From: Candidatus Shapirobacteria bacterium | GTDB taxonomy: Bacteria; Patescibacteriota; Microgenomatia; UBA12405 | Length of the DNA: 64,000 bases | Direction: 5' to 3' | NCBI GenBank assembly: GCA_030698565.1 | Contig: JAUYJS010000008.1 | Coordinates: forward strand, 161,275 to 225,274 | Shown: piece by piece, positions 20,492 through 46,622 of the stretch | Numbering within the stretch: the stretch's first letter is position 1 | How the letters are laid out: every line of letters starts with the position of its first letter | Notes under the pieces: model-generated | The model's input: only the letters and a program-made list of their open reading frames with translations | The model's database searches: none | What the model was told of the DNA's origin: nothing | Position numbers and translations under genes: made by a program

Positions 20492-20549
20492 AATTACTTC
20501 TCATTTTTATCGCTTTTTAGAATATACACAAATCCACAACTCATCGTTG

Positions 20550-20623
20550 TGGGTATGCATGGATTCGGACCATGGACCCCCGACTTATAAGATCGGTGCT
20601 CTAACCAACTGAGCTACATACCC
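20550..20623 (-). tRNA. tRNA-Ile (anticodon UAU, decodes AUA)
   Basis: Minus strand GGGTATG-TA-GCTC-AGTTGGTTA-GAGC-A-CCGAT-CTTATAA-GTCGG-GGGTC-CATGG-TCCGAAT-CCATG-CATACCC-A; 7-bp acceptor, U33, anticodon TAT, A37; no encoded CCA. Confidence 0.6.
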
Positions 20624-20627
20624 TTTG

Positions 20628-20701
20628 TAGCAGAGGCGGGGATCGAACCCGCTACCTTAGCGTTATGAATGCTACGCTCTAACCAATTGAGCTACCCTGC
20701 C
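20628..20701 (-). tRNA. tRNA-Met (anticodon CAU), elongator-type
   Basis: Minus strand GGCAGGG-TA-GCTC-AATTGGTTA-GAGC-G-TAGCA-TTCATAA-CGCTA-AGGTA-GCGGG-TTCGATC-CCCGC-CTCTGCT-A; anticodon CAT; lacks the 3 G-C pairs of an initiator; 4 nt from tRNA-Ile. Confidence 0.55.
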
Positions 20702-20775
20702 GCTTACCTGTGAATTATATCAGCCATACTGCCTAAATTCTATTTTTTCAATCTGATGCTAAAATTACATTATTT

Positions 20776-20934
20776 ATGGATAAGGGATTAAAAACAGGAC
20801 AATTAATTATCATTACGGGTCCTAGCGGTGTTGGTAAAGATTCCATTGCCCAGGATTTAAAGGGAAGAAAAATCTTATCTTTGGCTCATCGACCCAGTTC
20901 GGACCACCGATTTCCATTTCAAAAATGTGATTAA
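20776..20934 (+). pseudogene. truncated P-loop nucleotide kinase fragment (52 codons)
   Basis: MDKGLKTGQLIIITGPSGVGKDSIAQDL... then premature stop; resembles N-terminus of guanylate/nucleoside-monophosphate kinases; no full-length kinase ORF follows. Confidence 0.35.
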
Positions 20935-21001
20935 AAATGAGGGCTCAATCAGTCTTGTTGTTGAACAAATTAGTCAAATCCTTATTTCCTCGATAAAATA
21001 A

Positions 21002-21030
21002 AAAAGCCCACAAATTAATGTGGACCTTCT
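21002..21030 (-). terminator. rho-independent terminator downstream of tRNA(CAU)
   Basis: Minus strand CCACATTAATTTGTGG hairpin followed by GCTTTTTTATTTT. Confidence 0.45.
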
Positions 21031-21038
21031 TATTTGTT

Positions 21039-21108
21039 GCGGGGCCAGGAGTTGAACCTGGCCTGTGAGATTATGAGCCTCACGTGCAGCCGTACACTAC
21101 CCCGCATG
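21039..21108 (-). tRNA. tRNA with anticodon CAU (Met, fMet or lysidine-Ile2; not resolved)
   Basis: Minus strand TGCGGGG-TA-GTGT-ACGGCT-GCAC-G-TGAGG-CTCATAA-TCTCA-CAGG-CCAGG-TTCAACT-CCTGG-CCCCGCA-A; perfect 7-bp acceptor with U1-A72; short D-loop. Confidence 0.5.
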
Positions 21109-28458: not shown

Positions 28459-30255
28459 GTGGACAACCAGGTCGAAGAAATCAAGCAAAAACTGGACATA
28501 GTTACGGTAATATCAAAATATTTACCTCTTAATAAGCGCGGTCGACATCACCTAGCTTGTTGCCCATTTCATCAGGAAAAAACACCATCATTTACAGTTT
28601 CTACCGAACTTCAAATTTTTAAATGTTTCGGTTGCGACAAAGCCGGTGATATTTTTAATTTTGTTCAGGAGTATGAAAGAGTTGATTTTCGTGAAGCTTT
28701 ACAGATTTTAGCCAAGCAGGCTGGTGTAACTTTAGTTCAAAATACTCACCTAAGTCAGGAAGAAGCCCAGCATAAAACTTTAATTAGTATCAATTCCCAA
28801 TTAGCCGAATTTTATAATTACGTTTTATTAAACCATCCTCTGGGCAAAATTGCCCTTGATTATGTTCTAAACCGGGGGATAAAACCGGAAATTATCAAAA
28901 AATTTAAAATCGGGTTTGCTCCTACCAACTCGCAGCTACAAGTTAATTTTCTTTTAAAAAAGAAATATAATTTGCCAGATTTAATTGCCACTGGTACTTT
29001 TGGCCAAAGTCATTATGGCGGCAACCAGCTTTACGATCGTTTTCAGGGTCGTTTAGTTTTTCCTTTAACTGATTATCGGGATCGAATCTTGGGCTTTGCC
29101 GGTCGGGTATTGCCCGGCAGCGCCGGTTCCAATTCTGCCAAATATATTAATTCACCAGAAACTGCCATTTATCACAAAAGTCAGATGCTTTTTGGCCTAA
29201 ACTTAGCCAAAGAAGCTATTCGTAAAAGCAACTCTGTGATAGTCGTAGAAGGGGAATTTGACATGATTTCGCCTTATCAAATCGGAGTAGAAAATATTGT
29301 GGCCCTAAAAGGTACGGCATTTACCCAAGATCAACTGCAATTGCTTCATCGTTATACTGACACTATAATTTTGGGTCTTGATTCTGATTTCGCCGGCAAC
29401 AATGCCGCCAGAAAAAGCATAGAAATGGCTGATTCTTTGGATTTCGACATTCAAGTTCTAATATTAGGTGAAAAATACAAAGATCCCGATGAAGCCGTCA
29501 AAGCTGATCCAGAATTTTTTAAAGCTCAATTACAAAAAACTATTCCCGTCTGGGATTTTATTATTCAAACAGCAGTTAAAAATTTCGATATCAATACCGT
29601 CAAAGGCAAAAAGCAGGCCCTAGAGATGGTTTTGCCATTTTTAGTTAAAATCAAAAATACGGTTATTAAAACAGATTATTTTCGTAAACTGGCGTTTGAA
29701 ATTAGTTCCGATGAAATGTCTGTGGCTCAGGAAGCCGCTAGATTGGGTAGCCCTTCGTATTCGGCCGCTCATGTCAAAATTCAGCCTCAAGTCGATGAAG
29801 TTATTAATCTCGTCAAAAACCCTAAATTAGAGGAAGCCCTTATAAATTTGATTCTTGGTGCCAGAAAGCCACTTCTTTTAGCCAAAAAAATGGAGCATAT
29901 AATCAACGGCTTTGCCACAACCAAGCTTCAACCTATAATTTCTCTCTTAATCACATCAACCGATTTTGAACCTTTAACTTTTCAAGAACAACTACCGGCC
30001 GAGATCCGTCACTACTTTCAAACTCTATTTTTAAATGCAACTTCAGAACCCATGGATCCCCATAGAAGAATGCTAGAGGTCAAAAAGATAGGAATTCAAA
30101 TTGAAACGATTAACCTCAAAGAAAGGCTAAATTTATTAAGTCAACAGATAGCTTTGATGGAAAAAAACGAACAAAACGAGGAATTAAACAAGGTAGAATT
30201 GGAGTATAATCAGATTTTATTGAAACTATCCCAAATTCAAAGCAAAAAAAGCTAG
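28459..30255 (+). CDS. dnaG: DNA primase DnaG (GTG start)
   Basis: Zinc-binding CPFHQEKTPSFTVS...CFGC; Toprim VVEGEFDM and DSDFAG. Confidence 0.85.
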   Translation: MDNQVEEIKQKLDIVTVISKYLPLNKRGRHHLACCPFHQEKTPSFTVSTELQIFKCFGCDKAGDIFNFVQEYERVDFREALQILAKQAGVTLVQNTHLSQEEAQHKTLISINSQLAEFYNYVLLNHPLGKIALDYVLNRGIKPEIIKKFKIGFAPTNSQLQVNFLLKKKYNLPDLIATGTFGQSHYGGNQLYDRFQGRLVFPLTDYRDRILGFAGRVLPGSAGSNSAKYINSPETAIYHKSQMLFGLNLAKEAIRKSNSVIVVEGEFDMISPYQIGVENIVALKGTAFTQDQLQLLHRYTDTIILGLDSDFAGNNAARKSIEMADSLDFDIQVLILGEKYKDPDEAVKADPEFFKAQLQKTIPVWDFIIQTAVKNFDINTVKGKKQALEMVLPFLVKIKNTVIKTDYFRKLAFEISSDEMSVAQEAARLGSPSYSAAHVKIQPQVDEVINLVKNPKLEEALINLILGARKPLLLAKKMEHIINGFATTKLQPIISLLITSTDFEPLTFQEQLPAEIRHYFQTLFLNATSEPMDPHRRMLEVKKIGIQIETINLKERLNLLSQQIALMEKNEQNEELNKVELEYNQILLKLSQIQSKKS

Positions 30256-30288: not shown

Positions 30289-31374
30289 ATGGTTGTCACT
30301 CTAGACTTTTCAAAGATTAAAAAAACATTAGTAGCTCAGGCTAAAAAGCTTCACTATCTCACAAATGAAGAAATTATAGGCCAAGTTCCAGAGCCAGAAA
30401 AATACATTCCTCAGCTCGATGATCTCTTCGATTACCTGTTTGAACAAGGGATTGATGTTTTCGACAAGGTAGAATCCAAAGAAATTATAGAAATAGAAAA
30501 GGAAAAATTAAGCTCTTCCGATTTTCTAAATCTTTTAACTCAAAAAGCCAATGTTGATTCGGTTAGGATGTATCTAAAAGAAATCGGTAAAATCGACCTT
30601 TTGAATTTTGACGAAGAAGTTAGATTAGCCAAAGCTATTGAAAAAGGTTCTGCAGATGCTCGGGAAAAATTAATTAATGCCAATTTAAGATTAGTTGTTT
30701 CTATCGCCAAAAAATATATCGGTCGCGGTTTAACTTTCCTCGATTTGGTTCAGGAAGGTAACCAGGGTTTAATGCGGGCAGTCGAAAAATTTGACTGGAA
30801 GCGCGGCTTTAAATTTTCTACCTATGCCACTTGGTGGATTCGCCAAGCTATTACCCGTGCCATTGCCGATCAGGCCAAGACTATTCGTATCCCCGTCCAT
30901 ATGGTCGAAACTATCAACAAAGTTTACAAGGCCACTCGGGCTCTCACTCAGCGCTTAGGCCACGAACCAGAAATCGAGCAAATTGCCGAAGAAGTCGGCA
31001 TCACTGTTGAAAAAGTCGAAGAAATTTATAGAATTTCCCAGGATACTACCTCGCTTTCTACTCCAGTAGGCGACGATGAGGATTCATTTTTGGGAGATTT
31101 TATTGAAGACACTACTCAGCCATCTCCCTATGAAGAAACTTCCAAAGAATTACTTCGTGAATCTATTGAAGAAGTTTTGGGTTCTTTAGACGAAAGGGAA
31201 ATGAAAGTTTTAAGTCTTCGTTTTGGTCTGATGGGTGAGACTCCAAAAACTCTAGAAGAAGTCGGCAAAATTTTCAACGTCACTCGCGAGCGTATTCGCC
31301 AAATCGAAGCCAAGGCTTTGCGAAAACTCCGCCATCCTAGTCGTAGAAAAAAACTCCAAGATTATTTGGAATAA
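30289..31374 (+). CDS. rpoD: RNA polymerase sigma-70 factor (primary sigma)
   Basis: Region 2 [37 protein letters not shown]...[13 protein letters not shown]; region 4 [27 protein letters not shown]. Confidence 0.85.
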
Positions 31375-31466
31375 AATAACTTTTCTGGAATCGGCCGAAA
31401 TACAAGACAGTATTAATATTACACAATATATTTTAATATTTGGTATTTTTGTGTACAATTCTAAAT

Positions 31467-34400
31467 ATGAATTGTATATATGACACGTTTACAAATCTCT
31501 ATTCATTATCAAAAACACTTAAATTTGAACTTATACCAGAACCAGCTACTCTTAAAATACTTAAAGAAAAACAAATAATTCAAAAAGATTTTGAGCTTAA
31601 TGAAAATTATCAAAAAGTAAAGCCAATTTTTAATCAGATTCATTCAGAATTTATAGAAGAAAGTTTAGGTTCAGCCGTTAACAGCCAAATTAATTGGAAT
31701 GAATATTTTGAGATTTATAAAATAGGAAAAAATGAAAAAGATAAAGCTAAATTAGATAGTCTTAGAAAAGAGAAAACATTAATTGAAAAAAAACTTCGAA
31801 GTGAAATAACTAAATTGTTTAATGTTACCTCCGAAAAATGGAAATCAAATCCCGAATATGTAGACGATAGAGGAAAATGCTTATTTAAAAAAAATGGGCC
31901 TGAAATTCTGGCAGAAAAAGGAATTTTAAAACTTTTATATATCAAATATCAAAACAAATCAGGATTGGAATTATTAAAAAGTTTTGATTCATTTTTTACA
32001 TATTTTTCTGGATTTAATCAAAATCGAGAAAACTATTATTCCAGTGATGAAAAATCAACAGCTATTAGTTATCGTATTGTTCATGAAAATTTACCTAAGT
32101 TTTGTGAAAATTTATTAGATTATCAAAATAAAATTAATCAAAACATTACTATTGATAATCTAGATATCTTCGATATTAATTATTTTAATGAATGTCTGTC
32201 CCAGAAAGGAATAAATAAATATAACCAAGCAATCGGCGGATTTCGAGATGAATCAGATATAGCTAGCTTTAAAGTCCAAGGTATTAATGAAAAAATAAAC
32301 TTATATTTTCAAAAAACAAAGCAAAAACTTCCCAAGCTCAAATTTTTATATAAACAAATTGGTGTAATCCAAGAAAAGAAAGAGTTGTTTTTTTTAATTG
32401 ACGGTCACGACCATACTTTAAAAAACACACTAGAATTGTGTTTAAAAGAAAGTACTCTATATAACCAAAGAATAAATGATCTCGTTTGTTCAATTTTGAG
32501 GGCCGAAAACTTAGATCAAATATACCTTTCTAAAGCTGCATTAAACACTATTCAAAGAAAGTACTTCAATAATTGGCAGGTTGTCGAGGATGAATTTATA
32601 AATCAAAAATTATTTACCAAAAAGAAAAATAAAGAGGAAATCAGACTAACTATTCCAGAATTTATATCAATCGATAAATTCAAATTTGTATTTAATAATT
32701 TATCTGAAATAGACGCAAAAGATATTTTCAAAGAAAAATATCAAAACTTATTCATATTAAAAAACAAGTTTGATATTTTTGTAAAAATTATCGAACAAGA
32801 ATTCTCTTGGAATTATTTAGAATTTAATCAATCATTAGAAAATAAAAAATTATTTAGTGATAGCGAATGGAACAGGGTTACTTGGGTATTAGCTAAAACT
32901 AATCTTGAAAAAATTATCAACAATTTAAGTGAAAAACCAGATACTGAACAAAAAAATATTATTAAAACATTTTTAGATTCTTCATTAGTATTGTTACAGA
33001 TGCTTAAGTACTTTAAGATTAAAGAATCAGGGGTAGGTATCGTAAATTGGGATGGTGATTTTTATAATGAGTTAGACAATATCACACAAAGTTATCCACT
33101 GTTTAAGTGGTATGATGCAGTTCGCAATTATTTAACAAGAAAACCGTTTTCTGAAGATAAAATAAAAGTTAATTTTGAAAAAGGCAATTTACTTGGTGGT
33201 TGGCCAGATAGTCCAGAAGGTAATACTCAATATGGAGGTTTCATTTTTAGAAAAAATAACAACTATTTCTTAGGCATATCGCAAGACGCGAGACTATTTG
33301 ATCTAACAAAAAATCCAAATTCTCACAATAATGATGGCTCGTTTGAAAAAATGGATTTAAAACAATTAGACGGAAAAACGATATATGGATCAATTTATGG
33401 TGGTAAATACCAAACAAAATATGCCAAAGATAAGGATAATATTTCAAACTATGAATTGATAAAAAGAGTTAAAGATATTCTAAAAGAAAAAAGCACGTAT
33501 TTTCCACAATTAAATCAAATTATTGATGGTGATTTTGACGACCCAAAAAAACTTGCTACAGAAATTTCTTCAAAAACTTTATATTCAATAGACTTTTTTA
33601 AAGTTAGTGAAAATTATATTAACGAAGTTACTAGTCGAACCAACAAACCTCTTTATTTATTTAAAATATCCAATAAGTATCTTAAAAATTCAAACCAAAA
33701 TAATAAAAATAACTTACACACTAAGTTTTTTTTAAAACTTTTTGAAAAACAAAACAACGAATCTCTATTTAAGCTGTGTGGTGGGGGAGAAATATTCTTT
33801 AGAAAAGCATCTGTTGATCAAAAAATAGATGAATCTAGAAAAACATCGATTAAAATAGTCAAAAACAAAAGATATACAGAAGATAAGTATTTTTTTCATG
33901 TACCAATTGCGCTAAATGCAACTAAGCCGGGTTATTATAAAGATTTTAATAAAAGAATTAATGAAGATTTGATAGGCAATAAAAATAATGTTCATATTAT
34001 CGGTATTGATCGAGGAGAAAAGCATTTAGCTTACTATTCAGTCATCAACCAAAAAGGAGAAATTGTTGAACAAGGTTCGTTAAATAAAGATTTATTAGGT
34101 AAAGATTACGGTGAAAAACTTGAATTTATTGCAAAAGAAAGAGAAAAAGCCAGAGAAAATTGGGATCAAATTAATAAAATAAAAGATTTGAAAGATGGTT
34201 ATATCTCACAAGTTACAAAGAGAATCTCTGACCTGGTAATAAAACATAATGGTATTGTAGTTTTTGAAGATCTAAACTCAGGATTTAAAAGAGGTCGTCA
34301 AAAAATAGAAAAATCAGTTTATCAAAAACTAGAACTTGCTCTAATTAAAAAACTTAATTATTTAGTTGATAAAAATAAGCACGACGGAGAAACATTATCA

Positions 34401-35180
34401 GTCACCAACGCTTTACAGCTTACACCCCCAACTGATAATTTTGGAGAAATAAAAGGGAAACAATGGGGAATCATTTTTTATACAACAGCAGCCTATACAT
34501 CAGTTACTGACCCTATTACTGGTTTTAGAAAAAATATATATCTTAAAAAATCAGCAAAGAATATCATGCGAGAAAATATTTTAAAGTTAGACAATATAAT
34601 TTTTGATCAAAATAATTTATGTTTCCGTTTTGATTATTCATTAAATAAGTTTCAAAAAGATACTAGTAATAAAAAATGGAGTTGCTATACCCATGTTGAT
34701 CGAATATGTAATGAATACGATAAAAAAATAAATAAATGGGTCCCAACCTCAATTTGCCTCACAGAAAAATTAAACGATCTTTTTAAATCAGAGAATATAG
34801 ATATTAATAAAAATATTATTGAACAAATAAAAAACAAAGAAAATCTAAACAATAAATTTTATGAAGACTTAACTTTCTACATTAATTTACTATTTCAACT
34901 TAGAAATTCCAATTCTTCAAAAGAGATTGATTTTATTTACTCTCCAATAGAACCCTTTTTTGACAGCAGAAAATATCAACAAGAAGGTCAAAATCTTGAT
35001 TTTACAGAGAAAGCCAAATTACCTGTTCATGGGGACTCAAACGGTGCTTACAATATTGCTCGCAAGGGCTTAATAATGTTTAAAAGAATTAAACTAACTC
35101 CAGATAAGCCTGATCTTTTTATTGGAAATGAATATTGGGATTGTGTAGCGCAGAATTGGGAGGAATTTATAAGATCATAA
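31467..35180 (+). CDS. cas12a: Cas12a (Cpf1), type V-A CRISPR effector (1237 aa from ATG 31467)
   Basis: N-terminal FTNLYSLSKTLKFELIP; RuvC-I IIGIDRGEKHLAY; RuvC-II IVVFEDLNSGFKRGR; RuvC-III HGDSNGAYNIARKG; matching Cas12a repeats downstream. Confidence 0.9.
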   Translation: MNCIYDTFTNLYSLSKTLKFELIPEPATLKILKEKQIIQKDFELNENYQKVKPIFNQIHSEFIEESLGSAVNSQINWNEYFEIYKIGKNEKDKAKLDSLRKEKTLIEKKLRSEITKLFNVTSEKWKSNPEYVDDRGKCLFKKNGPEILAEKGILKLLYIKYQNKSGLELLKSFDSFFTYFSGFNQNRENYYSSDEKSTAISYRIVHENLPKFCENLLDYQNKINQNITIDNLDIFDINYFNECLSQKGINKYNQAIGGFRDESDIASFKVQGINEKINLYFQKTKQKLPKLKFLYKQIGVIQEKKELFFLIDGHDHTLKNTLELCLKESTLYNQRINDLVCSILRAENLDQIYLSKAALNTIQRKYFNNWQVVEDEFINQKLFTKKKNKEEIRLTIPEFISIDKFKFVFNNLSEIDAKDIFKEKYQNLFILKNKFDIFVKIIEQEFSWNYLEFNQSLENKKLFSDSEWNRVTWVLAKTNLEKIINNLSEKPDTEQKNIIKTFLDSSLVLLQMLKYFKIKESGVGIVNWDGDFYNELDNITQSYPLFKWYDAVRNYLTRKPFSEDKIKVNFEKGNLLGGWPDSPEGNTQYGGFIFRKNNNYFLGISQDARLFDLTKNPNSHNNDGSFEKMDLKQLDGKTIYGSIYGGKYQTKYAKDKDNISNYELIKRVKDILKEKSTYFPQLNQIIDGDFDDPKKLATEISSKTLYSIDFFKVSENYINEVTSRTNKPLYLFKISNKYLKNSNQNNKNNLHTKFFLKLFEKQNNESLFKLCGGGEIFFRKASVDQKIDESRKTSIKIVKNKRYTEDKYFFHVPIALNATKPGYYKDFNKRINEDLIGNKNNVHIIGIDRGEKHLAYYSVINQKGEIVEQGSLNKDLLGKDYGEKLEFIAKEREKARENWDQINKIKDLKDGYISQVTKRISDLVIKHNGIVVFEDLNSGFKRGRQKIEKSVYQKLELALIKKLNYLVDKNKHDGETLSVTNALQLTPPTDNFGEIKGKQWGIIFYTTAAYTSVTDPITGFRKNIYLKKSAKNIMRENILKLDNIIFDQNNLCFRFDYSLNKFQKDTSNKKWSCYTHVDRICNEYDKKINKWVPTSICLTEKLNDLFKSENIDINKNIIEQIKNKENLNNKFYEDLTFYINLLFQLRNSNSSKEIDFIYSPIEPFFDSRKYQQEGQNLDFTEKAKLPVHGDSNGAYNIARKGLIMFKRIKLTPDKPDLFIGNEYWDCVAQNWEEFIRS

Positions 35181-35734
35181 TGGATGGATTAATTCAAATT
35201 TCTAAAATAAATGATTTTTTATTTTGTCCTATGTCGTTATACAACCATAGTATTTATGAGAGCTTTGATCAAAAAATGTTTCATAGTAAATACCAAACCA
35301 TTGGCAAAATCAAACACGAAAGCATTGATAATGGCAAATACTCTTCGTTAAAAAGATTTTTGCAAGGGAATACTGTCTATTCACAAAAGTACAATATTAT
35401 CGGAAAAATAGATATTTATGATACTAAAACAAAATCACTTATTGAAAGAAAATTTAAAATTAACCATATATATAAAGGATATGTCTATCAGCTAATTGCT
35501 CAATATTTTTGTCTGGTTGAAAAAAACATATCTGTCGAGCACTTATTCTTACACTCACTTAAAGACAATAAAAGATATGAGGTGAATCTTCCTGACCAAA
35601 TAGTTGAAGCTGATTTTAGTTTATTTTTAAGAAAGATTAGAAATTTCAATCCAAATCAAATAACTTTCGTTGCTGAGAAGAAAAAATGTTTACAATGTAT
35701 TTATTCAACTTTGTGTAATTACAATCCATGCTAA
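35180..35734 (+). CDS. cas4: Cas4 (RecB-like nuclease with 4-Cys Fe-S cluster)
   Basis: ATG overlaps cas12a TAA (TAATG); N-terminal Cys (FLFCPM) plus C-terminal CLQCIYSTLC; IDIYD...LIERKFK nuclease motifs. Confidence 0.8.
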   Translation: MDGLIQISKINDFLFCPMSLYNHSIYESFDQKMFHSKYQTIGKIKHESIDNGKYSSLKRFLQGNTVYSQKYNIIGKIDIYDTKTKSLIERKFKINHIYKGYVYQLIAQYFCLVEKNISVEHLFLHSLKDNKRYEVNLPDQIVEADFSLFLRKIRNFNPNQITFVAEKKKCLQCIYSTLCNYNPC

Positions 35735-36687
35735 CTTTCCCAGATTTTTCACAAAAGAGAATAGTTATTGTTGGTAATAATGGCAATGTCACCAGCAATC
35801 TAAAATTCTATAATAGCAATATCCGATTATATTACGGGGAAAAATTTATTGATCAAGTTTCCTGTTACTCAGTTATATGTTTATTTATTGTCGGAGACAC
35901 CACCTTAACCACAAAATTAATTAAAAAAGCTAAAGAGTATGGAATTTCAATTTTTTTACTTAGCAATAATTTAAAAAACTATGCAGAAATATTTTCCAGT
36001 GCCGAGGGAAATTATAAACTGAGACAGAAACAATACCAGACATCTGAGCAAAGTGAGTTGGTGCTATCAAGACTTATTGTAAAAAACAAAATTAAAAACC
36101 AACTCCTCCTCTTGCAGGAAAAAAATATCAATGAATTTAATAAAAAATTTAATTCTATTCTTGAAAATATAGACAGTGTAGATGACAGACAACTACTACT
36201 TGGAATAGAAGGAAATACTTCAAGTCTTTATTTTGGCGCAATTTATAAAGACCATGATTGGCATAGGCGAGCACCACAAGCAAAAGAAGATCCGTTAAAC
36301 CTATTGCTTGATGTTGGTTATACTCTTATTTTTAACTATATTGACTCAGTACTTCATCTTTTTGGTTTTGATACCTACAAAGGTTTTTATCATAAACTAT
36401 TTTTTGAACGCAGATCACTAAGCTGCGACATGATGGAACCTCTTAGACCAATAATTGATCGGCAAATATTAAAGATGTTTAACTTAAAACAAATTAATGA
36501 AAAAGATTTTTATTTGAAGGATTGCTCATATTCATTTAAAGATTTTGAATCAGCCAATAAATATTCTAATCATATCTTAGAAGCAGTCTTAAAACAAAAG
36601 GAACCAATCTATGATTTCGTTTACTCATTTTATCGCCATATTCAGGAACCAGAAAAACATAATTTTATTGAATTTAGCCCGCTATGA
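35728..36687 (+). CDS. cas1: Cas1 integrase
   Basis: 319 aa, position and size; overlaps cas4 stop and cas2 start. Confidence 0.8.
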   Translation: MLTFPDFSQKRIVIVGNNGNVTSNLKFYNSNIRLYYGEKFIDQVSCYSVICLFIVGDTTLTTKLIKKAKEYGISIFLLSNNLKNYAEIFSSAEGNYKLRQKQYQTSEQSELVLSRLIVKNKIKNQLLLLQEKNINEFNKKFNSILENIDSVDDRQLLLGIEGNTSSLYFGAIYKDHDWHRRAPQAKEDPLNLLLDVGYTLIFNYIDSVLHLFGFDTYKGFYHKLFFERRSLSCDMMEPLRPIIDRQILKMFNLKQINEKDFYLKDCSYSFKDFESANKYSNHILEAVLKQKEPIYDFVYSFYRHIQEPEKHNFIEFSPL

Positions 36688-36965
36688 TAATCGTTGCATA
36701 TGATTTTGTATCAAACAAAAAACGTGCTAAGTTTTCTAAGTTTTTAAAGCAATACGGTGAAAAAATTCAATATTCAGTTTACAAAATAAAAAATAGTGAT
36801 CGTGTTTTAAACAATATAATTAGCGAAATTGAACATAAATATGAAAGAACCTTTGACAATACTGATAGTATCTTCCTATTTCGGGTCTGCCAACGATGCC
36901 AGAAATCATTGAAACTTTATGGCAACGCAAAACATCATCGAGAAAATGTGGTAAACTTGGGTTAG
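36684..36965 (+). CDS. cas2: Cas2
   Basis: 93 aa; MIIVAYDFVSNKKRAKFSKFLKQYGEKIQYSVY typical Cas2 N-terminus. Confidence 0.8.
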   Translation: MIIVAYDFVSNKKRAKFSKFLKQYGEKIQYSVYKIKNSDRVLNNIISEIEHKYERTFDNTDSIFLFRVCQRCQKSLKLYGNAKHHRENVVNLG

Positions 36966-37159
36966 AACTTTAAAAATACGACAAAATAGAAGTTATTGTG
37001 CGTAATTAAAACCTAAGTCTTTATTTTTCTTTAAAAATAGAGCAAATTATAAAATTAGACCATATATAAGGGTAATTTTATATCTATCATTATATGGATA
37101 AAGTCCTAAAAATAAAATTTTTAGTTGCATCTTTTTCCCATAAGATAGGTAAACCAGCT

Positions 37160-37570
37160 CCTAATTACGAATATTAAATTTCTACTTTTGTAGATATTTA
37201 AGCCATCTTCTATAACCTTTTCCTAATTACGAATATTAAATTTCTACTTTTGTAGATGGTAACTCTAGTGCTTATAGTGTTGTAGCCTAATTACGAATAT
37301 TAAATTTCTACTTTTGTAGATATTGTGTAACCAGTCAAATAAGACTTTCCTAATTACGAATATTAAATTTCTACTTTTGTAGATTCTAGGTGTTTAGTGG
37401 TTTGGGTTGCCTAATTACGAATATTAAATTTCTACTTTTGTAGATTACTCGTGGTGCATACCCTGAATTAGACCTAATTACGAATATTAAATTTCTACTT
37501 TTGTAGATACTAATGTAATAAAAAGTATTACCATCCTAATTACGAATATTAAATTTCTACTTTTGTAGAT
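37160..37570 (+). CRISPR. CRISPR array, 7 repeats of 36 bp (CCTAATTACGAATATTAAATTTCTACTTTTGTAGAT), 6 spacers of 25-28 bp
   Basis: Repeats at 37160, 37222, 37286, 37349, 37410, 37473, 37535, all identical; 3' end AATTTCTACTTTTGTAGAT is the canonical Cas12a crRNA handle; AT-rich leader 36966..37159. Confidence 0.95.
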
Positions 37571-37596
37571 TAATATTCATTTTTTTCTATTTAATA

Positions 37597-37716
37597 GAAG
37601 AAGTCGGCAAAATTTTCAATGTTACTCGCGAGCGTATTCGTCAAATCGAAGCCAAAGCTTTAAGAAAATTAAGACATCCCTCGAGAAGAAAAAAACTCCA
37701 AGATTATTTGGAATAA
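37597..37716 (+). pseudogene. relic duplicate of the last 39 codons plus stop of rpoD (direct repeat of 31255..31374)
   Basis: 120 bp with about 12 substitutions versus 31255..31374, all synonymous; in-frame translation [39 protein letters not shown] is identical to the RpoD C-terminus. Confidence 0.85.
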
Positions 37717-37896
37717 ATACTTCAGCCTTAATAATTTCAATGCTATAATCAAGCTTATCAATCCATCCTTTAATAGAGCCTGGTTTAACTCGCACATTTA
37801 AATATATTTTTCTTTTAGATTAATATTCCCAACGTAATTTCGACTTTGTCGAAAAACGTTGTTGGAACGTTAATTTTTCGAAGAAAAATTTTACGT

Positions 37897-38018
37897 TCCC
37901 CTGTAGCCTTTATCATTCCGTAGCCTTGGCGAAGGATGATCAATGGTAGAGGAAAATATTCCCCTGTAGCTCAATGGTAGACCTGCCTGCCGGCAGGCAG
38001 GGCGCCCGCCTGTTAAGC
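37897..38018 (+). repeat. two tandem partial copies of the tRNA-Asn 5' portion, each with an internal insertion
   Basis: Copy i 37897..37950 = TCCCCTGTAGC + 32-bp insert + TCAATGGTAGA; copy ii 37960..38018 = tRNA nt 1-22 + 20-bp perfect palindrome CCTGCCTGCCGGCAGGCAGG + tRNA nt 23-39. Confidence 0.7.
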
Positions 38019-38024
38019 TTATTC

Positions 38025-38309
38025 ATGTACTTTGTTTACATCTTGAAAAGTTTAAAAACAGACGAGCTCTATAAAGGTATTACCAATGACTTACAAAGAA
38101 GGATTATTGAGCATAATTCAAATAAGAATATCGGCTCCCGTGGTAAAGGGCCATGGCGATTAGTATATTTTGAAGAACACTCAAATCGAATTGAAGCCAG
38201 AAAACGAGAAAAATATTTTAAGTCCGGTTCTGGCCGGGAATTTTTAAAAATCATACTAAACACAATCCCCTGTAGCTCAATGGTAGAGCGCCCGCCTGTT
38301 AAGCGGTAG
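38025..38309 (+). CDS. small GIY-YIG nuclease-domain protein (about 95 aa from ATG 38025)
   Basis: MYFVYILKSLKTDELYKGITNDLQRRIIEHN...GPWRLVYFEEHSNRIEARKREKYFKSGSGREFL = GIY-YIG/URI domain (Y-V-Y, R, E, N); stop lies 44 nt inside the tRNA-Asn gene. Confidence 0.65.
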   Translation: MYFVYILKSLKTDELYKGITNDLQRRIIEHNSNKNIGSRGKGPWRLVYFEEHSNRIEARKREKYFKSGSGREFLKIILNTIPCSSMVERPPVKR

Positions 38310-38337
38310 GTTCGAGGTCCGAATCCTCGCGGGGGAG
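38266..38337 (+). tRNA. tRNA-Asn (anticodon GUU)
   Basis: TCCCCTG-TA-GCTC-AATGGTA-GAGC-G-CCCGC-CTGTTAA-GCGGT-AGGT-TCGAGG-TCCGAAT-CCTCG-CGGGGGA-G; U33, GTT, A37; starts UCC... like E. coli tRNA-Asn. Confidence 0.75.
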
Positions 38338-39900
38338 CAAAGCGGAACACTCAGGTTCCGAAGAAGCATAATACTTGGAAACTTTCGTTAAATCATACTG
38401 TTCGAAAATTTCTTTATCGTTATTCATCAATTTTTCTATATTCGAACTATTTGTTCGTTTAGCTAGTGCTAAAAGAGATTTAAATCCCGGTGTTAATGTG
38501 TAGAATACCTTGTCAATATCAAGTTCAATAGTGTCGAATACTTTTTTCATCAATTGTCTTTTCTCATTCGGTTCGACTTTTAAAAACGACGCCTTACCGT
38601 TCTGAGAAATCTCGTAAATTCTTACTCCCAGATCAGTAGTTTTTTGTATCGCCTCTGTTTGTTTGACAATATGTTTATCCAGCTCCGTTAAGTCACCGGA
38701 GAACTTTTTAGCAAGAATGTTGTATTGATCTTCCGAAATCTTACCATCCAACTTATCAATATATGCTTCACTTAATCTATTAGTGTAAATTTTTCTCGAT
38801 TTTTCTAATTCCTTTACCGAATCAAGATACAAGTCGGATTCGCTATTGTTCGTTTCTTTTAATGCCTTTTTCAGCCACTCTCTAACTTTTAGGCTGTCAA
38901 TTTTAAACTCATCGAGTACATTTCCAATACATTCTTCCACAACAATTTCCTTTGACCATTTTCGCTTAGGGCAATTTCGGTAATGATTACAATGGCCGTA
39001 CATTATTCCCTTGGCCTGTTCCCAGGTAATTGTTCCGTGACATTCATGACACTTAAAAACGCCTTTAAATTTGTAGTCATGTTTGCTGTATTTTGGGGTA
39101 TTCTTTGAACTAAGTATCCTTTGAACTTTATCAAACAGTTCTCGATCAATGATGGGTTCTTGTTTACCTTTGTGAATTTCACCTTTCCACATAAAGTCGC
39201 CTATATAAAACGGATCTCTCAGCAGCCGATGCATCCGACTCTTATGGACCAGCTTACCACTATCACTTTTCATACCTAATGTGTGCATTTCTTTGGATAA
39301 TTTAAGTATGGAATAAGTGCCGGTCCCATACAACTCAAACATCTTTTGGAGAATTGACGCAACTTCCGGATTAACCACATGAATTTTATGACCTTGTTCG
39401 CCTATTGTTTTATAACCATAAGGTGGTTTGGTAGGCAACCACCCTTCGCTTATCTTTTCCTTCTGACCTTTCTTTACCTCTTCACTTAGATTATCTAAAT
39501 AATACTGAGCCACTGATACTTTGATATTCCAAATAAACTTCTCGTTAGATTTAGAATTTTTATGTAGAATCACATTCTCTTTCACAAAATGAACCTGTTT
39601 TTCTTCATCATCTTCAATCCATTGGTTGATAATAACAGCGTCCCTAATGTTTCTTGTAAGCCGGTCGGTTTTTTCTACAACTAAGTTCTTTATTTTTTTT
39701 GATCTCAAATAATCCAACATTTCTTCAAAGAGCTTTCTTTGTTTGCTTCCGCCTGCTGACTCAGAAAGCGAAAACACCCTATCTATTTGAAGTCCTTTTG
39801 ACTGACAATACTCCGTTAATAATTTTTCCTGGGAGGGGAGAGAATAGCCTGTTTCTTCTTGCTCCTTAGAACTGACCCTACAAAGTAATACTGTTTTCAT
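38299..39900 (-). CDS. large serine recombinase (phage/ICE-type serine integrase)
   Basis: N-terminal resolvase catalytic domain MKTVLLCRVSSKEQ (Ser nucleophile), recombinase domain, Cys-rich zinc ribbon CHECHGT...CNHYRNC, coiled-coil C-terminus; 3' end overlaps tRNA-Asn 3' end. Confidence 0.85.
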   Translation of the reverse strand: MKTVLLCRVSSKEQEETGYSLPSQEKLLTEYCQSKGLQIDRVFSLSESAGGSKQRKLFEEMLDYLRSKKIKNLVVEKTDRLTRNIRDAVIINQWIEDDEEKQVHFVKENVILHKNSKSNEKFIWNIKVSVAQYYLDNLSEEVKKGQKEKISEGWLPTKPPYGYKTIGEQGHKIHVVNPEVASILQKMFELYGTGTYSILKLSKEMHTLGMKSDSGKLVHKSRMHRLLRDPFYIGDFMWKGEIHKGKQEPIIDRELFDKVQRILSSKNTPKYSKHDYKFKGVFKCHECHGTITWEQAKGIMYGHCNHYRNCPKRKWSKEIVVEECIGNVLDEFKIDSLKVREWLKKALKETNNSESDLYLDSVKELEKSRKIYTNRLSEAYIDKLDGKISEDQYNILAKKFSGDLTELDKHIVKQTEAIQKTTDLGVRIYEISQNGKASFLKVEPNEKRQLMKKVFDTIELDIDKVFYTLTPGFKSLLALAKRTNSSNIEKLMNNDKEIFEQYDLTKVSKYYASSEPECSALLPREDSDLEPTA

Positions 39901-43019: not shown

Positions 43020-43410
43020 CAAAATCGACCATTTTCTCCCTCTAGCAACCCACCAAAACCAGCCATTTTCGGCCATTTTAGCTATGGATATTTACTAAAA
43101 ATTCATTATAAATCACCATATTTCACCACATTTAGCTATATAAAACCCACCAAAAACCACCATTTTCTACCATTTTTAGCTTTAAATGATTAGCGAGAAA
43201 CCATTAAAAACCACTATATTTCACCACTTTTCCCTATAAAAATCGACCATTTTCGACTATTTTTTAAGCTAGAAAGTCTTGTTTTGTCGTGATATTACCT
43301 ATCAAAACCCATGATTTTCCATGTTTTTTAGCTTCAAATCATATATAAAAAACCTAATTTTTATATCAAAAATCGGTGTTTTTCGGTAATTTTCCTATCT
43401 TATCTGCCAT
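43020..43410. repeat. iteron-like array: about 8 degenerate direct repeats (about 45-60 bp period) built from paired half-sites NNCCATTTTC ... CCATTTTTAGCT
   Basis: e.g. CGACCATTTTCTCCC, AGCCATTTTCGGCCATTTTAGCT, CACCATTTTCTACCATTTTTAGCT, CGACCATTTTCGACTATTTTTTAAGCT, CCCATGATTTTCCATGTTTTTTAGCT in a non-coding 450-bp stretch. Confidence 0.6.
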
Positions 43411-43607: not shown

Positions 43608-45326
43608 ATGGTAAATATAAATGAATATGCAAACTTTATTTGGTCGGTAGCTGATACTTTAAGAGGCGATTACAAACAAGCTGACTACGGAAAAGTGATT
43701 TTACCTTTGACTGTTATCAGGAGACTAGATAGTGTTCTTTCAGATACCAAGGAAAATGTATTAAAAAGCTATGAATCCCAAAAAATAACCAATCTTCAAG
43801 AAGCTGATTTAGTACTCAATAAAATTGCCGGATACAAATTCCATAACCATAGTAAATTTGATTTTAGTAAATTGATTTCGGACCCGGATAATATCGTTTC
43901 AAATTTGAGAAATTACATTAACGGATTTTCCGAAAATGCCAGAGATATTTTAGAAAACTTTGAATTCGACAAAGAGATTCATAAACTGGATAAAGCCAAT
44001 CTCCTTTATCAAGTTGTAAAACAATTTCAGGAAATTAACTTACATCCCAGCAAAATAAATAATCATGAAATGGGTTATTTGTTTGAAGAACTGATCAGAA
44101 AGTTTGCTGAAGCATCAAATGAAACCGCCGGAGAACATTTCACACCCAGAGAAGTTATCAAGTTGATGGTCAACATCCTTTTTATTTCTGATAGTAATAT
44201 CCTTCGTGGTGACGGAATTATTAAAACCCTTTATGATCCTGCCTGTGGAACTGGTGGCATGATGTCGGTTGCTGAAGAGTATTTAAAAGAACTCAATCCA
44301 GACGCTAGACTTGAACTATTTGGACAAGAACTTAACCCAGAGTCTTATGCTGTTTGTAAGTCCGACATGTTGATAAAAGTTCAAGACCCGGACCACGTAA
44401 AATTGGGTGATACTTTGAGGAATGATCAGTTAAGGACCGAAAAATTTGATTACATGCTTTCAAATCCTCCGTTCGGAGTTAATTGGAAAAAGGCGGAGAA
44501 AGAAGTTAAGCAAGAATACGAGGATCTAGGATTTGGAGGAAGGTTTGGGGCTGGTCTTCCTAGTATCAGCGATGGATCAATGCTTTTTCTTCAACACATG
44601 GTTTCAAAAATGAAACCCACCAATGGAGGTTCCCGACTAGCGATTGTATTTAATGGCTCTCCACTATTCTCTGGTAGTGCTGGTAGTGGTCCCAGCGAGA
44701 TTAGAAGATGGATTATTGAAAACGATATGCTCGAAGCAATAATCGCTCTTCCGGACCAACTTTTTTATAACACCGGTATTTCTACATACATATGGGTTGT
44801 AACGAACAGAAAATCCATCGAAAGAAAAGGAAAGGTCCAGCTTATAAATGCTGTCTCATCCTATAAGGTGATGAGAAAGAAACTAGGCGATAAAAGAAAT
44901 GAAATAGGAACCGAGGATATTGATAAAATTGTCAGCTTATATGGGGAATTTAGTGATTCAAAATTCTCAAAGATATTTGATAATTCTGATTTTGGATATT
45001 CCCAATTAACAGTCGAAAGACCACTCAAAGACGAAAAAGGAAACATTATTAAAGACACAAAAGGCAAACCAAAAGCCGATCCTAAATTAAGGGACTCCGA
45101 AAATGTTCCATTAAAAGAAGATATTCAAGAATACTTCAAAAGAGAGGTGGTCCCATTTGTTCCAGATGCCTGGATAGATGAATCCAAAACTAAAGTTGGC
45201 TACGAAATCAATTTCACTAAGTACTTTTACGAGTATAAGCCACTTCGATCACTTGAAGAGATAACTAAAGACATTTTGGAATTAGAAAAAGAAAGTGATG
45301 GGTTATTGAAAGAAATTACTAAATAA
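43608..45326 (+). CDS. hsdM: type I restriction-modification system, methyltransferase subunit HsdM
   Basis: N-terminal HsdM_N; motif I DPACGTGGM; motif IV LSNPPFG. Confidence 0.9.
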   Translation: MVNINEYANFIWSVADTLRGDYKQADYGKVILPLTVIRRLDSVLSDTKENVLKSYESQKITNLQEADLVLNKIAGYKFHNHSKFDFSKLISDPDNIVSNLRNYINGFSENARDILENFEFDKEIHKLDKANLLYQVVKQFQEINLHPSKINNHEMGYLFEELIRKFAEASNETAGEHFTPREVIKLMVNILFISDSNILRGDGIIKTLYDPACGTGGMMSVAEEYLKELNPDARLELFGQELNPESYAVCKSDMLIKVQDPDHVKLGDTLRNDQLRTEKFDYMLSNPPFGVNWKKAEKEVKQEYEDLGFGGRFGAGLPSISDGSMLFLQHMVSKMKPTNGGSRLAIVFNGSPLFSGSAGSGPSEIRRWIIENDMLEAIIALPDQLFYNTGISTYIWVVTNRKSIERKGKVQLINAVSSYKVMRKKLGDKRNEIGTEDIDKIVSLYGEFSDSKFSKIFDNSDFGYSQLTVERPLKDEKGNIIKDTKGKPKADPKLRDSENVPLKEDIQEYFKREVVPFVPDAWIDESKTKVGYEINFTKYFYEYKPLRSLEEITKDILELEKESDGLLKEITK

Positions 45327-45329
45327 ATA

Positions 45330-46622
45330 ATGACTTATAAATCAGACACCTCGACTTGGAATACTAAAAAATTGAAGTATGTTACTTGTATCAATTCAGA
45401 GGTGCTAAGAGAAAATAAAGATAAAGAGCAAGAAATAAGTTATATAGACATCAGTTCGGTAAATTCAGACGGTAGAATTAAAAAAATCGAGAAAGTCAAA
45501 TTTGGAGTAGCACCTTCAAGGGCAAGAAGAATCGTTAAGAAAGGGGATGTGATTATATCAACCGTAAGAACTTATTTAAGAGCCATTGCTTCCATTAAAG
45601 AAAACATTGATGATTTAATTGTATCTACTGGTTTTGCTGTATTACGAGCCGGAAATGAAATATCACCAGATTTTCTGAAATACGCTATATTAAATCCAGA
45701 TTTTATCGACAAGATAATGGCTAACTCAAAAGGAGTAAGCTATCCTGCAATTAGTAGTTCTGACTTGGCAAACTTGGCAATTTCGTACCCGTACAAAAAG
45801 GAAACACAAGATTTAATAAGTAGATACTTAAATTATAAAACCTCTCTTATAGACTCCTTAGTTCAAAAAAATGAAAAACTAATTAAACTTTTGGAAGAGA
45901 AAAAAGCAGCAATTATTAGTCAGACCATAACAAAAGGGTTAAATACGGATGTCGAGATGAAAGACAGTGTAGTTGAATGGGTTGGAAAAATACCAAAAGT
46001 GTGGAAAGTGGAGCCAGTTTCTTTAAACTTCAAAGAGAATAAAATCAAGAATAGTAATCTCCAAGAGAAAAATTTACTCTCACTTAGTTACGGAAAAATT
46101 ATAAAGAAAAACATTCTTTCAAATTTCGGTTTATTACCAGAATCGTTCTCAAATTACCAAATAGTTGAAAAAGATTGCATTATATTAAGACTTACAGATC
46201 TTCAAAACGATAAAAGAAGTTTAAGAGTAGGCTACGTACCTGAAAGAGGAATAATTACATCCGCTTATATTGGTCTAACCCCAAAAAGCAATCTAAATTC
46301 CAAATATATTTATTACTTGCTTCACAGTTATGATTTAAAGAAAGTGTTTTATAACTTAGGTTCTGGTGTAAGACAAAGTTTAACTTACTTTGATTTTAAA
46401 AAGCTTCCATTGATTATCCCTACAAGTGAAGAGCAAGAAAAAATTGTGGAGCATGTTGAGGTAGGGATAAGAAAAATTAGTGATTCAATTAACTATATTG
46501 ATAAGCAAATAAAATTATTAGAAGAATATCGCAAAACACTTATCTCAAATGTGGTCACTGGAAAAACTGATGTTAGAGATGAAAAAATTCCAGAAAGTGG
46601 GATAAAATACAACTATGCCTAA
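45330..46622 (+). CDS. hsdS: type I R-M specificity subunit HsdS (two target-recognition domains)
   Basis: 430 aa, follows hsdM by 3 bp; two TRD-like halves separated by the conserved central coiled-coil. Confidence 0.8.
   Translation: MTYKSDTSTWNTKKLKYVTCINSEVLRENKDKEQEISYIDISSVNSDGRIKKIEKVKFGVAPSRARRIVKKGDVIISTVRTYLRAIASIKENIDDLIVSTGFAVLRAGNEISPDFLKYAILNPDFIDKIMANSKGVSYPAISSSDLANLAISYPYKKETQDLISRYLNYKTSLIDSLVQKNEKLIKLLEEKKAAIISQTITKGLNTDVEMKDSVVEWVGKIPKVWKVEPVSLNFKENKIKNSNLQEKNLLSLSYGKIIKKNILSNFGLLPESFSNYQIVEKDCIILRLTDLQNDKRSLRVGYVPERGIITSAYIGLTPKSNLNSKYIYYLLHSYDLKKVFYNLGSGVRQSLTYFDFKKLPLIIPTSEEQEKIVEHVEVGIRKISDSINYIDKQIKLLEEYRKTLISNVVTGKTDVRDEKIPESGIKYNYA

Follow-up and report, generated by a model that had tools for sequence, protein, structure and literature searches.

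A probably functional type V-A CRISPR-Cas locus in Candidatus Shapirobacteria, carried by a low-GC cassette joined to the chromosome at the rpoD stop codon

Among the type V-A CRISPR-Cas systems are those of Francisella novicida, Lachnospiraceae ND2006 and Acidaminococcus, with their effectors FnCas12a, LbCas12a and AsCas12a. The repeats of these systems carry the published signature UCUAC[N3-5]GUAGAU, in which a loop of 4 nt is the commonest (PMC7757703), and FnCas12a processes its precursor CRISPR RNA (pre-crRNA) by an RNase activity depending on H843 as the acid, K852, and K869 as the base (PMC11127173). In bacteria of the candidate phyla radiation (CPR), CRISPR-Cas systems are rare (PMC6509639), and Cas12a has already been published from Roizmanbacteria, Parcubacteria and Dojkabacteria (Chen 2019, PMC6509639, citing Zetsche 2015). 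A literature search found nothing that links Shapirobacteria with CRISPR systems. The present analysis concerns a stretch of 64 kb from Candidatus Shapirobacteria, referred to as the window and used for the numbering of all positions, which contains the genes cas12a, cas4, cas1 and cas2 followed by a CRISPR array. In all likelihood, this locus constitutes a type V-A CRISPR-Cas system of the Ca. Shapirobacteria chromosome that is complete and probably functional, and that was horizontally imported as a low-GC cassette of 6.2 kb, joined to its host exactly at the rpoD stop codon.

On the left, the cassette is flanked by an intact rpoD gene of the chromosome (30289..31374, plus strand), the last gene of a dnaG-rpoD pair in which dnaG occupies positions 28459-30255. 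Its product of 361 aa was identified with RpoD profiles, scoring 485 bits with the NCBIfam RpoD models and 385 bits with the RpoD C-terminal model (cut-off 354). An AT-rich gap of 91 nt (31376..31466, plus strand) forms the left junction between the end of rpoD and cas12a and presumably holds the cas12a promoter; a single weak sigma-70-like match occurs in it, at 31404-31432. The cas12a gene (31467..35180, plus strand) lies in an open frame that extends from a TTG at 31440 to 35180, and translation from the ATG at 31467 yields a protein of 1237 aa whose N-terminus, MNCIYDTFTNLYSLSKTLKFEL, agrees with the family consensus. This protein matches the Cas12a/Cpf1 equivalog model TIGR04330 over its full length with 717.2 bits (cut-off 300), retrieves the Cas12a chains of the PDB in phmmer searches with E-values down to 4e-152, and contains the Pfam domains REC1, REC2, RuvC_1 and NUC, the last with 84.7 bits.

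The adaptation genes adjoin the effector gene, as expected for type V-A. The ATG of cas4 (35180..35734, plus strand) overlaps the TAA of cas12a by 1 nt (TAATG), and the encoded protein of 184 aa belongs to the type V subtype of Cas4 (TIGR04328, 181.8 bits for a cut-off of 70); an N-terminal Cys16, a C-terminal C170-x2-C173-x5-C179 cluster and a D...ExK-like motif (IDIYD...IERK) can be read from its sequence. The following gene, cas1 (35728..36687, plus strand; 319 aa), overlaps cas4 by 7 nt, and its product scores 296.4 bits with the type V model TIGR04329, slightly below the cut-off of 300, 140.5 bits with the general Cas1 model (cut-off 71.7) and 166 bits with Pfam Cas_Cas1. Finally, cas2 (36684..36965, plus strand; 93 aa) overlaps cas1 by 4 nt and is recognized by TIGR01573 (50.4 bits, cut-off 24.5). 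All four open reading frames (ORFs) are intact, lie on the plus strand and are translationally coupled. An earlier reading made from the DNA letters, the original prediction, had described an intact cas12a, a coupled cas4-cas1-cas2 module and an array in this place, with cas4 overlapping the cas12a stop codon and cas1 overlapping cas2, and this description proved to be correct.

The Cas12a sequence is identical to the GenBank entry MDP4010074.1, automatically annotated as 'MAG: type V CRISPR-associated protein Cas12a/Cpf1 [Candidatus Shapirobacteria bacterium]', where MAG stands for metagenome-assembled genome. This entry is the sole member of its cluster at 90% identity, and the next protein among 5.8 billion is 41% identical to it. 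The name of the protein, together with an RpoD that is 86-89% identical to the RpoD of five Shapirobacteria-like MAGs, supports a host of the CPR type with a tiny genome, as had been suggested.

An AT-rich leader of 194 nt (36966..37159, plus strand), aligned here with the leader of locus L142 (JGI Ga0497325_000601), the nearest homologous system, precedes the array. Three blocks, AAAACCTNAGTCTTTAT (~37008-37025), AAAGTCCT (~37102-37109) and AGTTGCATCTTT (~37123-37134), are conserved between both leaders despite the identity of only 41% between the corresponding Cas12a proteins, which supports a rightward transcription and the acquisition of spacers at the leader end. The array itself (37160..37570, plus strand) consists of seven exact copies of the 36-nt repeat CCTAATTACGAATATTAAATTTCTACTTTTGTAGAT, located at 37160, 37222, 37286, 37349, 37410, 37473 and 37535, and of six spacers measuring 26, 28, 27, 25, 27 and 26 nt, respectively, in agreement with the counts given beforehand. 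Seven identical 36-mers recurring with a period of 61-64 nt cannot be due to chance. Even when up to 8 mismatches were allowed, both strands of the window lacked any further copy of the repeat, so that neither a second array nor an anti-repeat for a trans-activating crRNA (tracrRNA) occurs within it. The repeat ends in TCTAC-TTTT-GTAGAT, as is characteristic of type V-A, and its 3' end folds into a 5-bp stem closed by a 4-nt loop (UCUAC-UUUU-GUAGA, -4.8 kcal/mol), which is the crRNA pseudoknot handle anticipated from its 3' half. Between the last repeat, which is undegenerated, and a fragment of rpoD discussed below, a trailer of 24 nt (37571..37594, plus strand) has the length of a spacer; it may represent a spacer severed where the recombination took place, in which case the joint would have truncated a longer array. 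The first 22 nt of this trailer, taken as a possible truncated seventh spacer, gave no match among the viral contigs.

Depending on these elements, the array would be transcribed rightwards from the conserved leader, and the resulting pre-crRNA would be cut within each repeat to give a 5' handle of ~19 nt, AAUUUCUACUUUUGUAGAU, attached to a guide of 25-28 nt. The UCUAC/GUAGA stem computed for the handle would form the pseudoknot held by Cas12a, and a tracrRNA would not be required. The Cas12a-crRNA complex is expected to bind double-stranded phage DNA displaying a 5'-TTV-type protospacer adjacent motif (PAM) on the non-target strand, as shown for one protospacer flanked by TTA, and a single RuvC site made of D848, E934 and D1190, aided by R1146 of the Nuc domain, would then cut both strands. 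New spacers would be inserted at the leader end by Cas4-Cas1-Cas2.

The protospacer in question was found with spacer 4 (TCTAGGTGTTTAGTGGTTTGGGTTG, 25 nt, 37385-37409, plus strand), which matches two IMG/VR contigs, IMGVR_UViG_3300035670_000489 and 3300020045_006075, at 24 of its 25 positions in each, the sole mismatch being located at the PAM-distal position 24. The 5' flanks of the protospacers read GTTA in one contig (L003) and CTTA in the other (L004), i.e., TTA on the predicted strand, which supports both the reading of the spacers on the plus strand and the T-rich 5' PAM that had been expected for this system; with a single spacer and two related phage contexts behind it, the PAM is only partly defined. 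By an estimate that assumes the size of the collection, an exact 21-mer match would arise by chance with a probability of a few hundredths per spacer, and a match with three more bases and a TTV flank with a probability of about 1e-4. The contig IMGVR_UViG_3300035670_000489 encodes TerS, TerL and a DNA methyltransferase, and the protospacer sits in homologous genes of two otherwise mosaic phages. The targeted gene (L003:2053-2574, plus strand; L004:1-480, minus strand) codes for a Cys-rich protein of ~173 aa without any PHROG match, in which KDLLAKQDKPV and TQTTKHLD are the only patches shared by both phages, the TQTTKHLD patch being identical over 28 nt that correspond to the protospacer. No self-targets of the spacers were found in the window with up to 6 mismatches, and 437 kb of contigs akin to the targeted phage contained no further spacer match when up to 5 mismatches were allowed.

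With respect to the effector, D848 of RuvC-I (IDRGE), E934 of RuvC-II (VFEDLN) and D1190 of RuvC-III (GDSNGAY) align to D917, E1006 and D1255 of FnCas12a, and R1146 of the Nuc domain (QLRNS) aligns to R1218. None of the four varies among the 73 homologs that were aligned (73/73). The intact RuvC-I/II/III motifs ascribed to the 1237-aa protein are therefore real, and none of the loss-of-function substitutions in RuvC or Nuc that were to speak against a working nuclease was encountered. An AlphaFold2 model of residues 500-1237 (the C-terminal 738 aa) reached a pLDDT of 81.3 and a pTM of 0.77, and a Foldseek search of this model against the PDB returned Cas12a in all top 50 matches, with E-values down to 1e-49 and query-normalized TM-scores (TMq) of 0.70-0.76 (0.74 being the value quoted). 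The predicted structure matches the Cas12a fold of the WED, PAM-interacting (PI), RuvC, bridge-helix and Nuc lobe.

The same protein lacks counterparts of H843 and K852 of FnCas12a and possesses instead a K-R pair, K801/R802, in which it resembles Cas12a2 and Cas12a3, so that an RNA-triggered abortive-infection relative of these effectors, served by the same repeat, has to be considered. Such an assignment is hardly credible. It conflicts with the full-length match to the Cas12a equivalog, with the score of the NUC domain and its conserved Arg, and with the uniform list of top structural matches. A CxxC zinc-ribbon motif is absent from the 1237 aa of the protein, and this absence, combined with the presence of a Nuc domain, indicates that the effector is not of the Cas12a2 or Cas12a3 type. 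Moreover, Cas12a3 shares 10-20% identity with Cas12a (PMC13594972), as compared with ~30-35% between the protein described here and the solved Cas12a enzymes.

The origin of the cassette is recorded at its two ends. A repeat search revealed that the last 40 codons and the stop codon of rpoD occur twice as direct repeats of 123 nt, once as the working end of the gene (31253..31375, plus strand) and once as an orphan tail (37595..37717, plus strand) which starts 24 nt past the last CRISPR repeat and is devoid of both the 5' part and the start codon. The two copies are 86-87% identical, with exact blocks of 25, 17, 14 and 30-31 nt, and their similarity ends one base past the stop codon. All of the 16 nucleotide differences counted in codons 2-41 (16/16) are synonymous, including two- and three-base swaps such as AGT/TCG, CGC/AGA and CTC/TTA, and when 16 random substitutions were simulated 200,000 times, the peptide remained unchanged in none of the trials. 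The distance between the two copies equals that of either copy to the tail of another species, and all five relatives encode this same peptide. A divergence restricted to synonymous changes indicates that each tail diverged inside a working rpoD, in different genomes; judged from these sequences, one of the two tails came from another lineage along with the cassette.

Other properties of the cassette fit a recent horizontal import. Its GC content over 6.2 kb is 27.0%, versus 34.5-35.4% for the flanks, and neither cas genes nor a second rpoD tail occur in 13 related loci; to the low GC, the synonymous tails and the relatives without cas genes can be added the identity of 41% to the nearest Cas12a. 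The left tail follows the codon style of the rest of rpoD, with a GC content at third codon positions (GC3) of 0.41 and CGN in 6 of 7 Arg codons. The right tail is AT-rich like the cassette in its first 92 nt (GC3 of 0.28, AGA and TTA codons). As an indication of which tail is native, these codon usages are suggestive only, given the 40 codons and just 7 Arg residues available.

The right landmark of the interval is a tRNA-Asn(GTT) gene (38266..38338, plus strand; ARAGORN and Rfam), which follows rpoD wherever it was located among the 13 relatives, at 0.6-2.3 kb past rpoD in six of them (L005, L007, L087, L116, L117 and L125), as a tRNA-Asn-like match ~3 kb downstream in L008, and in an intron-split form in L006. 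In the window, it is found 550 nt past the orphan stop codon, which is thus at its ancestral position relative to tRNA-Asn. The tRNA-Asn gene is the only feature that the DNA downstream of the orphan tail has in common with the rpoD-downstream DNA of the relatives; L005 has a phosphoglycerate-mutase-like gene of 184 aa there, which is missing here.

Most likely, the incoming DNA carried the 3' end of an rpoD gene, and a single crossover of the Campbell type in the 31 nt common to both tails integrated it. A circular or linear DNA organized as rpoD tail, cas genes and array would recombine with the tail of the recipient rpoD, the crossover falling in the 30-31 identical nt at the stop codon. 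This model accounts for the host-style left tail, for the AT-rich first 92 nt of the right tail and for the native tRNA-Asn side that follows it. A one-off illegitimate join during the transfer from a relative is one alternative.

Direct repeats of the 3' end of a gene are also the classic scar of the islands inserted by site-specific recombinases, the right copy does lie at the ancestral distance from tRNA-Asn, and a gene for a large serine recombinase (38299-39900, minus strand), whose 3' end overlaps the tRNA-Asn gene, occurs 0.6 kb away. On this basis, a recombinase targeting the 3' end of rpoD, acting in trans or since lost, might have inserted an element that brought a replacement tail, the right copy representing the displaced native tail. 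This scenario is nevertheless unlikely. It predicts the opposite distribution of host-style and cassette-style codons between the left and right tails, although this is a weak argument with 40 codons. No integrase, transposase or PolB gene is found between the direct repeats, which enclose only cas12a, cas4, cas1 and cas2, and no inverted repeats pair the ends of the cassette. Serine integrases, besides, are not known to make duplications of 123 nt. Of the 137 rpoD loci examined (80 from genomes and 57 from metagenomes), the window alone possesses a second rpoD tail, and duplications of the end of the upstream gene do not flank the cas loci in L142, L143 and L146 either. A fragment of a serine recombinase suspected at 37717-37960 from a weak repeat was discarded, as tblastn returned no match and every frame is riddled with stop codons. 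The single crossover mediated by the rpoD tail remains the preferred route.

Several observations weigh against the reading of a complete, functional and imported system. The RNase triad of FnCas12a (H843/K852/K869) is incomplete, with K799, equivalent to K869, as its only representative, and the WED-III loop between FFRK and KNKRY counts 16 aa without His, i.e., ~16 aa fewer than the Fn loop; in FnCas12a and the homologs carrying H[PK]AN..NKN, 30-35 aa separate the same two motifs. The Pfam PI-like model PF22222, detected in many homologs, is undetected in this Cas12a, residues 638-704 match no solved Cas12a sequence, and P and G are aligned opposite K613 and K671, the PAM-reading lysines of FnCas12a. 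Of the six spacers, only one has a match: spacers 1, 2, 3, 5 and 6 yielded nothing in IMG/VR with exact PAM-proximal seeds of 21-24 nt, nothing in the window, and nothing among the INPHARED phages, where a blastn search with all six spacers gave merely a chance 19-mer. The target search recommended at the outset has thus succeeded for spacer 4 and failed for the five others. Searches for a donor sequence, for an empty site and for another example of the insertion found none of them, and the Logan contigs (k=31) of SRR13727534 break at the 31-mer shared by the tails, which leaves the topology unconfirmed by them. Lastly, the evidence for the locus consists of sequence and predicted fold, from which its expression and activity are inferred.

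Those features of the effector, together with the five spacers lacking a target, would suit an inactive relic defective in interference or in crRNA maturation: the RNase loop with its His is missing, a PI region cannot be recognized, and Fn K613 and K671 are not conserved. The relic interpretation is nonetheless improbable, when confronted with four intact and coupled ORFs, intact DNase residues, seven identical repeats, and the near-perfect phage match with a proper PAM. Furthermore, many homologs have the same loop and PI features, which are evidently conserved among them. A short and mostly His-free WED loop is common to ~70 of the 90 top homologs that could be parsed, and should therefore be regarded as a feature of the clade rather than as decay. 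K799, K801 and R802 are listed as key residues of the WED domain, and, in the alignment of 73 homologs, R802 does not vary and K807 and H811 hardly do. Cas12a2 and Cas12a3 process the same type of repeat without the residues of the Fn triad, that histidine included, using Lys/Arg in their place (PMC13594972), and thus provide a precedent for the processing of pre-crRNA without His; a literature search for a described His-less subgroup of Cas12a found this precedent only. In the PI region, the protein reads GKTIYGSIY where others have NKMLPKxx, and resembles a subgroup of homologs with GGWSDGQE and LAGKGFL; about five short helices are predicted by AlphaFold2 for residues 638-704. The protein lacks the complete RNase triad as well as the PAM-reading elements that distinguish the canonical, Fn/As/Lb-type sub-group, namely the loop-lysine-helix motif (K..LPK) of the PI domain and the lysine of the WED domain (Fn K671 and K613, respectively). 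In the proposed alignment of the Cas12a domains to FnCas12a and LbCas12a, the RuvC and Nuc domains accordingly conform to expectation, and the WED loop with its RNase His and the PI domain are non-canonical. As far as the aligned sequences indicate, these departures of the RNase loop and PI region are common to a subgroup of homologs, which forms an unstudied subgroup of Cas12a.

The break of the Logan contigs deserves consideration of its own. The tails have an exact 31-mer in common, AGAAAAAAACTCCAAGATTATTTGGAATAAA, at which the k=31 contigs of SRR13727534 end and start, and the same 31-mers would be used by two topologies, the inserted one and one in which an empty chromosome, running from rpoD to the tRNA-Asn side, coexists with a separate circle of 6.34 kb containing the cas genes, the array and one rpoD tail. 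That the insertion is such an artefact of assembly is very improbable. The region lies uninterrupted within the GenBank contig of 353.7 kb, presumably since longer k-mers or reads spanned the 31 nt, and a 6-kb circle without a replication gene would not persist alone. Even under the artefact model, the rpoD fragment attached to the cassette needs the same recombination history. As regards a donor or an empty site, a scan of metagenomes with a 29-mer resembling the right tail reached, at best, a tail only 88.6% identical.

A broader proposal can be built upon the preferred route of insertion and upon the peculiarities of the effector. According to it, the locus would be a mobile cassette, free of an integrase, that passes between CPR genomes with a copy of the ultra-conserved rpoD 3' end serving as its portable homology arm, integration and excision taking place by Campbell-type homologous recombination at the stop codon of the recipient rpoD. 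Its effector would belong to an uncharacterised subgroup of Cas12a, which would have a short WED loop devoid of His and a reduced PI domain, and would mature crRNA and recognize the PAM by residues other than those of all solved Cas12a enzymes. Taken as a whole, this proposal is speculative and on balance doubtful.

The cassette is located at the edge of a CPR defence island comprising type I restriction-modification (R-M) and Gabija genes. The island extends to the right of tRNA-Asn, from the serine recombinase gene at 38299 up to 55561, and no right boundary was found. It includes a LOOT RNA, a small RNA motif (Rfam RF03000, 41878-41986, plus strand; 67.9 bits for a gathering score of 46.4), and a tandem repeat of 98 nt in 2.1 copies with 77% matching (43047-43249), situated in a gap of ~600 nt upstream of hsdM. 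The type I R-M genes, identified by profile searches, are hsdM (43608-45326), hsdS (45330-46622) and hsdR (46615-50070), the product of hsdR being fused to a C-terminal Schlafen/AlbA_2 domain. They are followed by a PDC-S57/T5orf172 gene (50071-50772), by the Gabija genes gajA (50855-52741, 730 bits) and gajB (52618-54540, 335 bits), and by a gene for an HNH/SAVED-effector-like nuclease (54650-55561). A gene found here at 57.1 kb lies 25.7 kb from rpoD, versus 8.3 kb in the relative L006, and this displacement designates the rpoD-tRNA-Asn interval and the region beyond as a hot spot for acquired defence genes. On the opposite side, a tmRNA gene (3882-4314, minus strand) and a tRNA-Ile(TAT)/tRNA-Met/tRNA-Met cluster (20549-21106, minus strand) occur; the tRNA cluster is present at a similar distance 5' of rpoD in L005 and L007, which marks the left flank as native chromosome.

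Two decayed copies of the 5' half of tRNA-Asn(GTT) precede the intact gene, the first (37897-37953) with an insert of 31 nt and the second (37961-38019) with the 18-nt palindrome CCTGCCTGCCGGCAGGCA, and an ORF for a GIY-YIG endonuclease (~38025-38260) is intercalated between these copies and the intact tRNA-Asn. In L006, the tRNA-Asn (L006:10014-10232) carries a group I intron in its anticodon loop (Rfam, 89 bits). The decayed copies may be what is left of an event, due to an intron or a homing endonuclease, in which the 5' half of the tRNA gene was replaced. An unrelated insertion bracketed by copies of a gene 3' end was noticed in another CPR-like genome, that of L146, where the 3' end of the PNPase gene pnp is duplicated over 38 nt (L146:19523-19560 and 20862-20899, 92% identical) on either side of an insertion of 1.3 kb with an AAA ATPase/DUF4143 gene; it is the only gene-end duplication seen in L142, L143 and L146.

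In terms of size, repeat length and spacer length, the locus is ordinary for a type V-A system. The 1237 aa of its effector are close to the 1225-1231 aa of the LbCas12a chains and fall within the range of 1206 to about 1500 aa of the Cas12a homologs, and spacers of 25-28 nt are normal for a clade in which loci L142 and L143 have spacers of 25-30 nt. The original prediction overstated its case in calling the enzyme compact and the array a short-spacer one, and its candidacy as a compact genome editor loses ground as well, nothing indicating an advantage over the known orthologs. For use as a tool, it amounts to one more divergent, TTV-type Cas12a of ordinary size, although the loop and PI departures make the subgroup worth biochemical study. 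Much was already known, namely the type V-A kind of system, the automatic annotation of the very same protein in GenBank and the existence of Cas12a in CPR bacteria. The link of spacer 4 to phages with its TTA PAM, the rpoD scar, the departures of the RNase loop and PI region, and the position at the edge of a defence island are new. Since the hosts of CPR phages are hard to assign, a spacer that ties a Shapirobacteria genome to two IMG/VR contigs, and provides a first in silico PAM (TTA), is of some value. The orphan tail represents an unusually clean scar, which records both the acquisition of a whole cassette from another lineage and the site of recombination; should the pattern recur, it would point to a simple, integrase-free spread of defence cassettes.

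Compared to the systems with FnCas12a, LbCas12a and AsCas12a, the locus has the same operon order, cas12a-cas4-cas1-cas2-array, the same 36-nt repeat ending in UCUAC-N4-GUAGAU (PMC7757703), and the same RuvC D/E/D residues and Nuc Arg, with TMq values of 0.70-0.76, and the TTV PAM of FnCas12a fits the 5'-TTA flank of the single protospacer. It differs from them by an identity of ~30-35%, by a WED-III loop shortened by ~16 aa and devoid of His, by a PI region of ~67 aa instead of ~100, which has no sequence match in any solved Cas12a, and by the PAM-reading lysines K613 and K671, which are unconserved in the alignments. The other CPR loci with Cas12a (PMC6509639), as well as the metagenomic Cas12a-M (PMC7757703), are likewise of type V-A, in hosts with small genomes, with 4-nt loop repeats and T-rich PAMs. 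The group 1 proteins of Roizmanbacteria (PMC6509639) differ from the protein described here, in which all RuvC residues are intact. Cas12a2 and Cas12a3 (PMC13594972) use the same kind of repeat and similarly lack the H843/K852/K869 triad of FnCas12a, but possess a zinc ribbon, are devoid of Nuc and are triggered by RNA; in contrast, the Cas12a of the window has a Nuc domain and no CxxC, and matches Cas12a over its whole length.

The second- and third-closest Cas12a homologs, P0003 (L143:13744-17205) and P0004 (L146:13753-17424), sit behind secA and are directly followed by a second Cas12-like gene coding for 1150-1220 aa, before cas4-cas1(-cas2). This two-effector arrangement has been reported (PMC6509639, PMC7757703), and differs from the single effector of the present locus. 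The genes called in L143 and L146 do not correspond to the stored proteins under translation table 11, which suggests a recoded CPR lineage. The nearest homologous system, L142, shares the architecture of the locus, including Cas4, Cas1 and Cas2 of 184, 319 and 93 aa, respectively, in both systems; it likewise has 7 repeats of 36 nt, which agree with the repeat of the window in all of their last 21 nt. The identities amount to 41% for Cas12a, 45% for Cas4, 49% for Cas1 and 63% for Cas2. However, the Cas12a of L142 carries a canonical LPK motif and a Pfam PI-like domain, unlike that of the window, its genomic context differs, and the duplication of the flanking gene end is absent.

As far as the insertion is concerned, both the tRNA/tmRNA islands and the casposons, which use the 3' end of the aEF-2 gene, are inserted at the 3' end of a conserved gene. 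The cassette resembles them in that the insert starts exactly where a highly conserved gene stops, with direct repeats of that 3' end on both sides, and differs from them in that the insert contains no integrase, no casposase/PolB and no terminal inverted repeats. It also differs from the target-site duplication left by casposons, since the repeats at the ends of the cassette measure 123 nt and are ~86% identical with purely synonymous differences, which indicates that one of them came from another genome.

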